From Chrysomallon squamiferum (lineage: Eukaryota > Animalia > Mollusca), in contig CM022676.1 of assembly GCA_012295275.1 (NCBI GenBank), forward strand, positions 4,464,001 to 4,528,000: a stretch of 64,000 nucleotides of DNA, written 5' to 3'. Numbering within the stretch: the first letter of the stretch is position 1; every line of letters starts with the position of its first letter. Made by a program: the position numbers and the translations under genes. The notes beneath the pieces are model-generated. The model had not been told where the DNA came from and ran no database searches. It saw only the letters and a program-made list of their open reading frames with translations. Of this stretch, positions 2,954 to 28,246 are shown one piece after another.

Positions 2954-4154
2954 ATGAGTGCTAAGTTATTCTGTGTGTTCGTGTTACTGGGATCTCTAAG
3001 TTACGTACAAGGTATGTATTTTATATTCCTGCCAAAAGGCAGACGTGTCATAAACTATAGTATAGCATAAATTATGGAATATTCTGATACAATTAAATAC
3101 AGAACACAGAACAAAATTATATTAAATTATATTAATTAATAGATTTATTTGTAGATTTATTAATTACATTTACCATATTATAATTAGGCTCTTGCTGTTG
3201 TTTGTATGTTCCCGAGTGATACATATTTACAAACTGTGAAATCTAAATTGAGTCGAAATTATGTTTCGTTGACTAAGGTAAAAAACTATATGCATGATTG
3301 TGTGATTTGAAGTTTTGAAATATCTGTATTAAAGCATTAGGCAATAACATAACATTCCATGACATAAGATAACGTTAGGATATGAGAGTCGATAATGTAA
3401 CATAATGTAATAAAATTTAAAGTATAATAATAATAATAATAATAATAATAATAAATAAATAAATAAATTAATTAATTAATAAATAAATAAATAAATTAAT
3501 AAAAATAACACAAAATGTGAATGTAATTATAAAATATGTATTTAATTTACTTTTGAATTTTGTTTGATTATTATTATTTTAAACAGAAGTTTGGTTTTTC
3601 GTAATAACAACATCAGACAGGAATGTAATTGTAGGATCACCTTTTACTTTTACCTGTCGAGGATATCCTGTTTCTATAATTTCCTGGTTTGAGAATAACA
3701 CAAAATACAGGATGGATATAGGAAGACATGGTCAATGTCTTTATCATAGTAATCCTCCAAAAGAATACACTTTTAAGTGTTCAGATGACCTAAACACTCT
3801 CACAATAAAATCAGTGAAACTCAGTCAACATGGAACAGTGTGGAGATGTGGTGACTTTCTACCACGCAGCAATGAAATAAAACTGGAAGTGAGACGTAAA
3901 ATTAACTTATTTATTATTAATGTTATTACTGTACCTATTAGATGTTAAAAAAAAAGAAGGAAATAAAACTGGAAGTAAGAGGTAAAATTAAATTGTTTAT
4001 TTTAAATGTTATTACTGTACCTATTTTACGTTAAATTTTTATGTTTCGGAATTTTTTCCACACACTCACAAGTTTTATAGAAACGAAAATTTCATTGCAT
4101 ATTTCAGATAATCAGACTGCGCCAGCGGCTGTACAACAACATACAGAGATGTGA
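2954..4154 (+). CDS. IgSF gene A: signal peptide + single V-like Ig domain + short tail, no TM (predicted secreted, 137 aa)
   Basis: Exons 2954-3011 ([19 protein letters not shown], donor GTATGT), 3587-3895 (EVWFF...FTFTC...SWFENN...GTVWRC...EIKLEVR) and 4108-4154 (HNQTAPAAVQQHTEM*). All junctions are phase 1 and in frame; exons are paralogous to genes B and C. Confidence 0.75.
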
Positions 4155-5120
4155 TAAAGTTTGAAAATAAATGAAACTGTTGTCATGAATGTTAAAGAAG
4201 GAAACAAGTTCTATTTGTTAATCATGTACTTCTTGAAACTGTTTTATGAATACTAACAGGATATTAAATTGTTAAAAGTTTTTTTTTACTAATATACAAG
4301 GCCTTCAGTTTCCACAATGACACAAGATTTGAACTGTGTAAACAGGTACCTATTTAAATATTGACACACGGATAGATTAACAAAAAGAAGCATTTGATCA
4401 ATCTCAGTAACACTGGTCTCATTCGCACATGTTTCATCTTTTAATTTCTTATATTTCCTTCAGATGTAAGATCCTTCACGTCATGAAAGTCTCTATTTTC
4501 TTGTATAACAGTAACATGAGAAATGAAATTCCTGGATCACAATGGCAGATTAAATCTATATTTACAAGTGTTTGTTTTTTTTGTGTTTTTTTTTATACTA
4601 AGAAGAGTTTCCTTTTCACGGCTTCGTATACCATATCTATCCAAGGTGTTCCGTTTTTTGGTGAAATTTCTGAATTTTTCATATTTTTATTCTCTATTTA
4701 CATTGAGTGAAGCATAATTCTATCTTATGATTTTGTAAAAGATGGACGAGGGTTCGGGCGTACGAATCGATTTTTATTTCAATTTTAAAAAAAAAAAAAT
4801 TATATATTATAATAAACGGCTTGGACTGGATTTAATTTTTTCGTTTTTTGTTTTTTTACACAATGTTTCTCCGTCTGCATGTTTCCTGTTAAATGTCTTT
4901 CTCTGTTCTGTTAGATTTTATTGCGAATTTTTGCTCATGTAACAAAGACCGAAATGATAGAAAATGGGTTAAAGGAACTTTCAGCAAGCATTTGGAACGG
5001 GAGACAGGACAAGGGACGTAATGAAGGGAACTGCTGTAAGAACTAAACTAGTGTGTACTATTTCTCTGCTAATTATGTTGTCTTTTTACATCATATACCA
5101 GGTTTCTTTCTGTGTTTATA
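4060..5120 (+). repeat. Direct copy of the terminal exon and 3' flank of gene B (about 18660-19790)
   Basis: Shared strings such as GAAACGAAAATTTCATTGCAT, CATTTGATCAATCTCAGTAACACTGGTC and GGACGAGGGTTCGGGCGTACGAA at both places. Confidence 0.9.
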
Positions 5121-5549
5121 ACAAGCTTTCTCAGTCGATTTTTGTACTTGAACCATTCTGATTTTACACACCTCTCTTTTCTTTTCTATTATTCTCTATT
5201 TACCTGTTACTCTATCTGATTGTTCTTTCTTTCTTTACTTCACTGTATCCACACATCCATCCATCTGTCTACCCAATCACTGTCTCTGAATATATAATTA
5301 CACATGTAAGAACGTAAGTCCAACGAAATGACAGAACGTGGGTTAAAGAAATTGTGAGCAAGGAGTTAGAACAGGAAAACAGACAAGGGACATAATAAAG
5401 GGAAGTTACGTAACTACTAAACGTATGTGTGTGTGAGTGTGTGTATATATGTATATATAGATATACGTAGACACATACAGAGGTATAGTATACATACACA
5501 CAGATATATACACACACACACACAGATACATACGTACGTACATATATAT

Positions 5550-26724: not shown

Positions 26725-28197
26725 TTCCAGTGTTTTAGTTTTAACTGAAGTTAATAAAAATATTGTTACTTTTTTTTCTTCACTGCTTTCTCGATTTTAC
26801 TGCTGTTAATGTAAAAGCAGTTTTCGGCGCCTTCTTGTTGAACTTTATTCTGGTAACTTATGAAGTTTTATTTCCTGTTTCATACACAATATGAACACTA
26901 GTCTCATTGGCTCTGCATATTTATTAATAAACTAAATCCACTCGACTGAATCAGAAAAATACATAATGCAACCTGAGATATAATACACAGCGTTGTATTT
27001 TGAATAGTTAATTCTGCTTAGAATGTTTTTTCTTCTTCTTCGTTTTCTTTTTCTTTTCTTTTCTTTTATTTTATTTTCTTACTAGTTTTTTTATTATTAT
27101 TATTGATGTCCGAGTGTATTTATGTACGTTTATAAGTATGTGTGAAGGAGTTTTATCTTACAGGTGTATGTAATTCCATATTTGCATTTATATAGATATA
27201 TACATAGACATGTAGTTAAGTATATATGTACGTATGTATATATCTGTATATATATATATATATATATATATATATATATATATATGTATGTATGTATGTA
27301 TGTGTGTATATGTGTGTGTTTACATACATATAAACATATATAAACAAACATACACGCAGGCACACACACACACACGTGTATGTAATATTTAAATATATAT
27401 ATAGAGAGAGATATATATGTAGCATATATATATATATATATATATATATATTTATGCAGGTAGGTTGTATATGTGTATGTATGTATGTTGCTTGTGTGTG
27501 TATATACATACATATATACATACATATACATATGTGTGTGTGTGCGTGTGTTTGTAAGTAAGTGTGCGTCTGCATTTTTAATAATTAGAAATCTTGGTCA
27601 TTTTGAATTGTGGCGTAACCTAGGCAACATGGATGTTTGCCAAGTTTTGTTTCTTACGTCATGACATGACTTTGTCAGTTTTATTTTGGTATGTTGTAAC
27701 TCTACCGCTCTGTTCAAAACCAGCCATGCATGGAAAAAGACGAACAAAAAATGTAACCCAAAAACCTAATACTCTTTCTGTCAAGTCACTGAGTAGCATA
27801 CTCTTTCTATTGTGTTCGGTTTATACTGGAATATGTGTGTGTGTGTGTGTGTTTGTGTGTGTGTGTGTGTGTGTGTGTGTGTGTGTGTGTCTGTGTGTTA
27901 TTATTGTTGTTGTTTTGTTATTATTATTATGCTTACTTTATTACATATTTTTATATTGTATTACATTATGTTACGTTGCGTTACGTTATTCTGTGTAATG
28001 TACTGTCATATTACGATACATTATGTTATCCTATCTTGTTTTTTGTTATGGTTTCATATTTTGATAAATATATTTCAAGACTTCATGTTGCACAGTTATT
28101 ACCATTAGTCATCCACAAATGACGTCGACTCCACATTTGGTAAATGAAACGACACTAACTCAGATAGAGATAAATAATTTGAATATAAAATACATAC

Positions 28198-28246
28198 CTT
28201 GTACGTACAATACACATCCCAGTAACACGAATAACTTACAACTCAT
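28198..28246 (-). CDS. Distal alternative signal-peptide exon of gene C
   Basis: MSCKLFVLLGCVLYVQ(G) with a phase-1 GTATGT donor; inverted copy of 8298-8346. Confidence 0.6.

Follow-up and report, generated by a model that had tools for sequence, protein, structure and literature searches.

We report a cluster of three immunoglobulin (Ig)-type paralogues between positions 2954 and 28246 of a 64,000-nucleotide stretch of the Chrysomallon squamiferum assembly (contig CM022676.1, 4,464,001 to 4,528,000; hereafter the window, in whose own coordinates all positions are given). All three genes have a leader and an N-terminal Ig domain in common, and we call them A (2954-4154, forward strand), P (9835-18751, forward; gene B of a preliminary description of this stretch) and M (26724-21649, reverse; gene C of that description). 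On balance, the sequences suggest that these are three paralogues of a mollusc-restricted family of Ig superfamily (IgSF) receptors, plausibly cell-surface recognition receptors that would signal through tyrosine-phosphorylated tails resembling the ITAM (immunoreceptor tyrosine-based activation motif), with one predicted soluble form. They are likely immune-type, fast-evolving receptors, and we offer this functional reading as a hypothesis.

Organization of the cluster

Five copies of the leader start ATGAGTnnTAAGTTATTC stand in the window (forward strand: 2954, 8298, 9835; reverse strand: 26724, 28246), where 100 shuffles gave an expectation of zero, and its first and last copies are the borders of the cluster. 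Three Ig1 exons were found by tblastn of exon translations against the window (3587-3895 and 10678-10989 forward, 25893-25585 reverse; pairwise E 1e-44 to 1e-50), in agreement with the preliminary description of three paralogues sharing a leader and a V-like domain, while the remaining Ig, transmembrane (TM) and tail exons were found in P and M only. The acceptor of the tail exon, TTTCAGAWAATCAGACTGC, is present six times in the window against 0.01 expected. With the models spliced by coordinates, every exon is bounded by AG and GT and all introns are in phase 1; phase-1 introns throughout are the classic layout of an IgSF gene.

Self-comparison by BLAST revealed an inverted segmental duplication (6296-14406 versus 30195-23111, 85-89% identity) and a third, shorter duplicate at 2325-4015 that is 78-85% identical to both long arms. 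That the copies are uncollapsed haplotigs, the alternative named in advance as fatal to a gene family, is ruled out by their sharing one contig, partly inverted, at 78-89% identity and with differing architectures, and an inverted-repeat assembly artefact is ruled out by arms that are just 85-89% identical. The window is AT-rich, with a GC content of about 0.26-0.36 up to 56 kb and many microsatellites, and an Rfam scan of it returned no matches.

Three smaller features accompany the genes. About 1.5 kb upstream of the P and M leaders stand second, shorter leader-like exons, each with an ATG, 16 codons plus one nucleotide and a GT donor, which may serve as alternative first exons or be what remains of lost copies. 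A repeat of 1.3 kb, with copies that are 90% identical, is found upstream of A (4-1278, forward) and, in the opposite orientation, in the space that separates the 3' ends of P and M (19801-21107, reverse); its open reading frames (ORFs) have no Pfam match, and its placement suggests that the family may have another member immediately to the left of the window. Finally, the intron contains tandem repeats of the closing ~60 nt of the Ig1 exon with its splice donor (3950-3990 and 11050-11090 forward, 25532-25390 reverse): A and P each have one additional copy and M has two, and an intact GGTAAA is retained in some of them; these could be decoy or alternative donors, or the product of replication slippage.

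Architecture of the three genes

The seven exons of M splice into an open frame of 465 amino acids without a stop, encoding in order a leader, the V-like Ig1 (103 residues), two C2-like domains, Ig2 and Ig3 (87 residues each, 47% identical to one another), a divergent Ig4, a stalk and TM segment, and an end exon. The predicted cytoplasmic tail is 37 residues long and carries YSSL-x8-YDVI.

P has no counterpart of the Ig2 exon of M, by self-comparison and by tblastn, and its Ig3-like exon differs from that of M by two single-nucleotide losses and one gain, leaving 260 nt instead of 261 and thus a stop at codon 164 as assembled. As all P exons are phase 1-1, omitting the defective exon keeps the frame, and the model spliced in this way is open over 372 amino acids. 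The multi-cassette form of the preliminary description therefore stands as regards its three tail cassettes, and needs amending as regards its ectodomain, in which, as assembled, one Ig exon carries a frameshift and the number of C2 exons is one lower than in M.

Public DNA runs bear on this lesion. Eleven were listed, of DNA or unknown type and from three studies, nine of which cover part of the stretch; their contigs were placed on 9700-18530, and positions 11654 and 11816 of the P C2-like exon were checked in them. At the first lesion, the majority of contigs in four runs carry an extra A that restores the reading of M (depth with the extra A relative to depth at the place: 668.6 of 837.2 in run X1, 1053.1 of 1160.9 in X2, 135 of 135 in X3 and 65.3 of 65.3 in X5). 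These contigs, each at most a few hundred bases long, may derive from M or from other paralogues. The summed depth of the contigs over 9700-18530 is several-fold higher in exon than in intron bins, with up to 18 contigs per exon position in one run, which hints at further family copies, the figure itself not being a copy number. Within the cassette array, 16401 is joined to 18187 in contigs of three runs from as many studies, across an interval of 35 other letters and with short sides of 21-29 letters, and other joints skip 1.5-1.8 kb or step back 2.2 kb; paralogues or alleles with a different number of cassette units may account for such joints. Between its Ig4 and TM exons P also has about 1.5 kb (12628-14146, forward) absent from M, whose intron there is ~350 nt. 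This segment, whose ORFs have no Pfam match, is probably an insertion.

A consists of a leader, Ig1 and a 14-codon end exon, 137 amino acids in all, and its product is predicted to be a secreted V-only form. TM sequence is absent from the spliced form and equally from the form read through past the Ig1 donor, in which 17 extra residues precede a stop. The end exons of A and P have a common 45-nt deletion that removes both tyrosines, and the flank of A at 4052-5116 matches P at 18652-19783 in the self-comparison; because of these two features, A looks like a P-type gene minus ~11086-18652. The three output formats proposed at the outset are thus all found in the models, A being without a TM segment, M having a single two-tyrosine module and P a triple cassette.

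Fold and variability of the N-terminal domain

Pfam reports Ig families in every Ig exon, with Ig2 and Ig3 exceeding the curated cut-offs and Ig1 and Ig4 mostly falling below them; M alone passes with its Ig1, for the family 'ig' (23.1 versus a cut-off of 21.8). The best match of Ig3 among PDB sequences is carcinoembryonic antigen (1e07, E 2.4e-19, over three stretches), a C2-set likeness that explains the 'CEACAM-like' names given to relatives by automatic annotation, and Ig4 has weak matches to MuSK (E 0.005) and MAG (E 0.012).

Ig1 is V-like by its predicted fold. A model computed from 21 aligned sequences (predicted local distance difference test, pLDDT, 90.9; predicted template-modelling score 0.84) shows nine strands, C' and C'' among them, and places two at 38-45 and 50-53, in a predicted two-sheet arrangement of the V-domain type; a prediction from three sequences was unusable (pLDDT 35.7). 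The best Foldseek matches listed from the PDB are all antibody light- or heavy-chain variable domains, nanobodies or T-cell receptor V-beta domains (template-modelling scores 0.58-0.74), consistent with the V-like first domain originally proposed, and the Ig1 profile finds weak, collinear kappa V matches among PDB sequences over residues 13-90 (E 0.015). In M numbering the canonical residues are C23, W33 and C88, of which the two cysteines are invariant or nearly so in the 21 sequences, and C51 and C65 form a second cysteine pair. Across the 21 sequences, variation is absent or almost absent at ten positions, which include the four cysteines and the F-strand tryptophan, and A, P and M each keep all ten.

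This domain evolves faster than the membrane-proximal Ig4. Between P and M, the proportion of non-synonymous differences (pN) is 0.219 in Ig1 versus 0.059 in Ig4 (Fisher p = 6e-7), while the synonymous proportion (pS) is similar (0.164 versus 0.153), so that the non-synonymous rate of Ig1 is about four times that of Ig4. For Ig4 the non-synonymous rate (dN) lies below the synonymous rate (dS; p = 0.027), which indicates constraint on the P/M pair, and dN is below dS in the TM exon also. Over the whole Ig1 domain dN/dS is 0.88, 0.88 and 1.4 for the three pairs. In the BC, C'C'', DE and FG loops, the counterparts of the antibody complementarity-determining regions, 15 of 18 residues vary among A, P and M; the loops of the opposite end have 12 of 29 variable residues (p = 0.006), and the remaining positions 29 of 81 (p = 0.0004). 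Between M and P about 25 of 42 non-synonymous sites of the top loops have changed versus 2 of 12 synonymous ones (p = 0.019). The E-F-G framework, by comparison, has a pN of 0.031 versus a pS of 0.05-0.15. The pattern, as seen in three sequences placed on a predicted structure, is the one expected where diversifying pressure acts on a putative ligand-binding tip and the scaffold is conserved. Gene conversion as the source of the conserved 3' half of Ig1 was considered and rejected, synonymous differences there being near the neutral level.

The tyrosine module of the tail

The end exon of M encodes 36 residues in which SPYSSL is followed by eight residues, (VP)YDVI and the stop. In P the exon is present three times in tandem (c1, c2 and c3), in repeat units of ~1.1 kb, which self-BLAST showed and Tandem Repeats Finder, with a longest period of 500, did not report. 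Each cassette has a GT donor where the M exon has its stop region and is phase-symmetric at 99 or 105 nt. The YSSL-x8-YD[VI]L sequence is kept in c2 and c3; c1 has lost its first tyrosine through a 6-nt deletion, and a degenerate further copy, c0, has no acceptor at the homologous place and has both tyrosines replaced (by H and D).

The tails were compared with the patterns Yxx[LI]-x6-9-Yxx[LI] for an ITAM, narrowed to x6-8 for assigning membership, and [S/I/V/L]xYxx[I/V/L] for an immunoreceptor tyrosine-based inhibition motif (ITIM). The first matches M once and P twice, and the narrower spacing is kept by M (YSSL-x8-YDVI), c2 (YSSL-x8-YDVL) and c3 (YSSL-x8-YDIL); the second matches the M tail twice (SPYSSL, VPYDVI) and c1 (SAYLVL) and c2 (SAYDVL) once each. 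The ITIM/ITAM tails attributed to the cluster earlier are accordingly present as motifs of both kinds. The module is also found in the Gigantopelta aegis proteins XP_041372832 (YSSL-x8-YEGL) and XP_041373955 (YSSL-x9-YDVL), and its retention in two genera argues for constraint and makes a match by chance less likely.

At the start of the TM segment both P and M read GFGSGFG (14173-14230 forward; 23344-23290 reverse), and relatives in Gigantopelta and Haliotis have GFGAGIG, GFGSGIG or FGAGVGVG at this place. GFGxGxG is possibly a dimerization motif of the GxxxG type.

Relatives and range of the family

An exhaustive HMMER search with an Ig1 profile over 1.84 billion representatives gave 37 matches at E <= 0.001, nine at <= 1e-10 and two, both from Gigantopelta aegis, at <= 1e-30, a distribution that accords with the lineage-specific family previously suggested. 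Among the 20 significant matches that were looked up, 15 are named and five unnamed; 13 of the 15 are from molluscs (Gigantopelta, Dreissena, Haliotis, Mytilus and Lottia), the other two being a fish CD22-like protein and a protein from a bacterial metagenome-assembled genome. The nearest protein-feature clusters of the Ig1 domain also consist of mollusc proteins. Word-index searches with Ig1 against longer proteins and proteins of similar length gave no match, the relatives being found by the exhaustive search. One-to-one orthology with a conserved adhesion gene, which would have spoken against a separate family, was not found in the profile search. By these sequence matches, the Ig1 type is spread among molluscs, and close family is seen in one other genus.

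The four best named relatives are all RefSeq models of Gigantopelta aegis, three of them on one 53-Mb contig. We assign XP_041372832 ('CEACAM1-like'), XP_041372833, XP_041346725 ('CEACAM5-like') and XP_041373955/6 (uncharacterized) to the same family; their names bear out the expectation that automatic annotation would label such genes CEACAM-like. Their Ig1 profile E values run from 9e-65 to 3e-11, with 45-59% identity to the Ig1 exons of the window by tblastn, and they have the same order of Ig1, C2-like Ig, divergent Ig and GFGxGxG-TM, followed by a tail with YSSL-x8/9-Y[DE]xL. They differ in having longer tails with a third tyrosine (YENV or YEDV), and neither a triple cassette nor a V-only form is found among the proteins examined. 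These proteins are known from automatic annotation only, and a literature search found no paper on this receptor family, its Gigantopelta members included.

Possible function and alternative explanations

If the genes encode recognition receptors, the V-like tip would bind a variable ligand, whether microbial, symbiont or self, and clustering of the receptor would lead a Src-type kinase to phosphorylate the two tail tyrosines, on which a Syk-type kinase with tandem Src homology 2 (SH2) domains could then dock. We favor docking of this kind because the 12-residue spacing from tyrosine to tyrosine fits an ITAM better than tandem-ITIM geometry; this spacing is shorter than in typical tandem ITIMs. 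Since both tail tyrosines also fit an ITIM, recruitment of a phosphatase is possible instead. A tail of the P type, with more cassettes, may strengthen or grade the signal in the manner of CD3 zeta, and A could serve in soluble form as a competitor or an opsonin. P as assembled would be a receptor only if the defective Ig exon is skipped, and would otherwise be a pseudogene in this haplotype.

Several observations weigh against reading the cluster in this way. V-set (PF07686) is listed by Pfam for no Ig1 exon, and the Ig1 scores stay under the cut-offs of Ig_3 (16.8-27.2, below 30) and I-set (22.5-23.0, below 23.7). The test of loop variability uses three sequences, with loops placed on a predicted model. 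YxxL/I motifs are also generic endocytic sorting signals, and as both M tyrosines fit an ITIM, the sign of the signal may be activating or inhibitory. P stops at codon 164 owing to its frameshifted C2-like exon; the Ig1 donor of A is weakened, with C instead of G at -1 and an intact GT; and the whole-domain Ig1 dN/dS of 0.88 for A is to be expected of a decaying fragment as well. Splicing, cassette inclusion and the secreted form are all predicted from sequence.

A rival possibility, which we consider rather doubtful, is that M alone works and that A and P are pseudogenes or fragments, by-products of duplication and deletion, so that the three formats would carry no functional meaning. The 260-nt exon of P with its stop, the lost tyrosine of c1, the degenerate state of c0, the origin of A by loss of ~11086-18652 with a weakened donor, and a whole-domain Ig1 dN/dS near 1 would all follow from such decay. 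It accounts less well for the fact that all three Ig1 exons are open and keep all ten of the positions that are near-invariant over 21 family members, or for the low pN of the E-F-G framework (0.031 versus a pS of 0.05-0.15) and the excess of dS over dN in Ig4 and TM between P and M. The phase 1-1 exons of P, moreover, make its bad exon skippable in frame, and most contigs of the public runs are intact at the first lesion, a paralogue origin for them being possible.

Alternatively, the products could mediate cell adhesion in the manner of CEACAM, nectin or IgLON proteins, with the V-like tip making homophilic or heterophilic contacts and the YxxL/I motifs serving as endocytic sorting signals. 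The resemblance of the C2-like domains to CEA, contactins and IgLONs, the CEACAM-like RefSeq names of the relatives, and the fit of YSSL and YDVI to the general YxxØ sorting signal are what one would expect of such molecules. We consider this explanation unlikely, as the ITAM spacing of the two tyrosines is kept in two genera and the tail module has been multiplied as a unit, Ig1 evolves fast in loops that resemble complementarity-determining regions (CDRs), unlike typical conserved adhesion molecules, and the profile search found no close orthologue outside one snail genus. An allorecognition system like Hydractinia Alr or Botryllus fester is very improbable: it fits in general layout alone (clustered genes, a variable N-terminal Ig domain and ITAM/ITIM-like tails), the relatives are solitary molluscs, which are not known to fuse tissues, and allorecognition is unlikely in a solitary gastropod.

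Returning to recognition receptors, a bolder form of the proposal would see here a variable V-type immunoreceptor system built by snails, in which fast-evolving CDR-like loops vary on a germline multigene family, signal strength depends on the number of ITAM exons that are duplicated or spliced in, as a protostome counterpart of the multiple ITAMs of CD3 zeta, and V-only secreted members act as decoys or opsonins. Should the host be a symbiont-bearing relative of Gigantopelta, such a system might keep symbionts in check in addition to pathogens. In this full form the idea is speculative, and we would not expect it to hold.

Comparison with known receptor systems

The kind of receptor is already known, namely invertebrate IgSF receptors with ITAM/ITIM-like tails, and what is most interesting here is the multiplication of the cassette and the V-only derivative. 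One case is oyster CgIgIT2 (Crassostrea gigas), likewise a multi-Ig mollusc membrane receptor with an ITAM. The excerpted account of it gives an IgSF protein with several Ig domains, a TM segment and a classic ITAM; microbe binding and signalling by way of ERK are reported for it (PMC11999971). It differs in having five Ig domains, and neither cassette multiplication nor a V-only paralogue figures in that excerpted description (PMC11999971).

Vertebrate CEACAM1 and CEACAM3 are alike in having an N-terminal V-type domain followed by C2 domains, tails with ITIM or ITAM-like motifs, and secreted relatives (PSG). CEACAM N domains are not known to have the disulfide; Ig1, in contrast, has the canonical cysteine pair plus a second pair. 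None of the 15 named proteins among the 20 looked-up Ig1 matches is a CEACAM, the best being mollusc proteins with automatic 'CEACAM-like' names, and for a protostome family the likeness would be at the level of domains or convergent, and not orthology. Fast evolution is a further likeness, described for the CEACAM family as species-specific (PMC2832619, PMC5112662).

The tail of P recalls CD3 zeta in carrying several ITAM-like modules in tandem, in P each on its own phase-symmetric exon. In CD3 zeta the number of ITAMs scales the signal. CD3 zeta, however, is a signalling adaptor without a ligand-binding ectodomain, whereas the P modules are on the receptor chain, and we claim no homology. 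The likeness to Hydractinia Alr, drawn from description, is one of layout only; that system has IgSF genes in clusters, with first domains that are V-like but unusual and tails that resemble ITAMs or ITIMs (PMC9546547), but it is a cnidarian allorecognition system, whose colony-fusion biology is inapplicable to snails. Clustered variable IgSF genes with ITAM/ITIM tails are also described for Botryllus and for vertebrate CEACAM, KIR and LILR. The analogy with strict paired receptors of the KIR, SIRP or LILR type did not hold up: those systems include an activating partner with a short tail and a charged TM residue for pairing with an ITAM adaptor, and here charged residues are absent from the TM runs of both P and M, while A lacks a TM segment altogether.

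Feature coordinates and neighbouring sequence

Table 1. Exons of genes A, P and M and related elements in the window.
Feature	Position	Strand	Basis
A leader exon, signal-peptide-like, ATG, donor CAAG/GTATGT, phase 1	2954..3011	+	leader-start motif
A Ig1 (V-like) exon	3587..3895	+	tblastn; donor GT kept
A short end exon, 14 codons + stop, homologous to P end exon	4108..4154	+	acceptor motif, alignment
Extra leader-like exon upstream of P	8298..8346	+	leader-start motif, tblastn
P leader exon	9835..9892	+	leader-start motif, spliced model
P Ig1 (V-like) exon	10678..10989	+	tblastn
P C2-like Ig exon, frameshifted	11604..11863	+	260 nt vs 261 in M
P Ig4 (divergent Ig) exon	12288..12566	+	tblastn, Pfam
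P stalk + transmembrane exon (GFGSGFG, hydrophobic run, RNKR)	14173..14289	+	tblastn
Degenerate cassette c0	15300..15400 (approximate borders)	+	alignment
P tail cassette c1, 99 nt, phase 1-1, keeps SAYLVL	15991..16089	+	acceptor motif, alignment
P tail cassette c2, 105 nt, phase 1-1, YSSL-x8-YDVL	17115..17219	+	acceptor motif, alignment
P tail cassette c3, 105 nt, phase 1-1, YSSL-x8-YDIL	18196..18300	+	acceptor motif, alignment
P end exon, 13 codons + stop, without tyrosines	18708..18751	+	acceptor motif, alignment
M end exon, tail SPYSSL-x8-(VP)YDVI then stop	21649..21761	-	acceptor motif, alignment
M stalk + transmembrane exon	23228..23344	-	spliced model
M Ig4 (divergent Ig) exon	23698..23976	-	Pfam, spliced model
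M Ig3 (C2-like) exon	24168..24428	-	Pfam Ig_2 37.9 bits; PDB sequence match to carcinoembryonic antigen
M Ig2 (C2-like) exon	24779..25039	-	Pfam; no counterpart in P
M Ig1 (V-like) exon	25585..25893	-	tblastn, predicted fold
M leader exon	26667..26724	-	leader-start motif, spliced model
Extra leader-like exon upstream of M	28198..28246	-	mirror of 8298-8346

Abutting the end of the inverted duplication is a 277-residue open frame (30204-31037, reverse) that is acidic and rich in tyrosine motifs (several DYV, and YxN) and in proline (PPPLPPR), with a SAM-like domain at its end (SAM_1, E 5e-4, under the cut-off). A weak Atlas lead (0.81) points to GAREM-type Grb2-associated adaptors, and a word-index search against longer proteins gave no match; a signalling adaptor adjoining a cluster of ITAM receptors would be of interest. 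Farther along are a single-exon ORF with a DnaJ domain (42749-43600, forward; E 3e-23) and a short ORF that weakly matches ribosomal protein L17 (37300-37584, forward; E 3.8e-5, under the cut-off), possibly an exon of a mitochondrial L17 gene. From 55665 to 64000 the GC content climbs from ~0.26 to 0.46-0.55, and four long forward-strand open frames there (487, 657, 754 and >472 residues), rich in Q, S, P and N and with no Pfam match, are probably large exons of a low-complexity nuclear protein. Pfam searches of eight flanking ORFs gave nothing meaningful.

Implications

In vertebrates, a central part in innate recognition is played by Ig receptors that are encoded in the germline, diversify fast and carry ITAM/ITIM tails (KIR, LILR, CEACAM and SIRP), and few invertebrate cases are known. 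The locus described here offers a clean protostome example on a single contig, with a domain of predicted V fold that varies in its CDR-equivalent loops and a tail module conserved between genera. It also provides genomic evidence for how new outputs may arise, through tandem duplication of a tail exon with gain of a splice donor, and through an internal deletion that yields a V-only gene. The 'CEACAM-like' labels in mollusc annotations hide a family that appears to be lineage-restricted.

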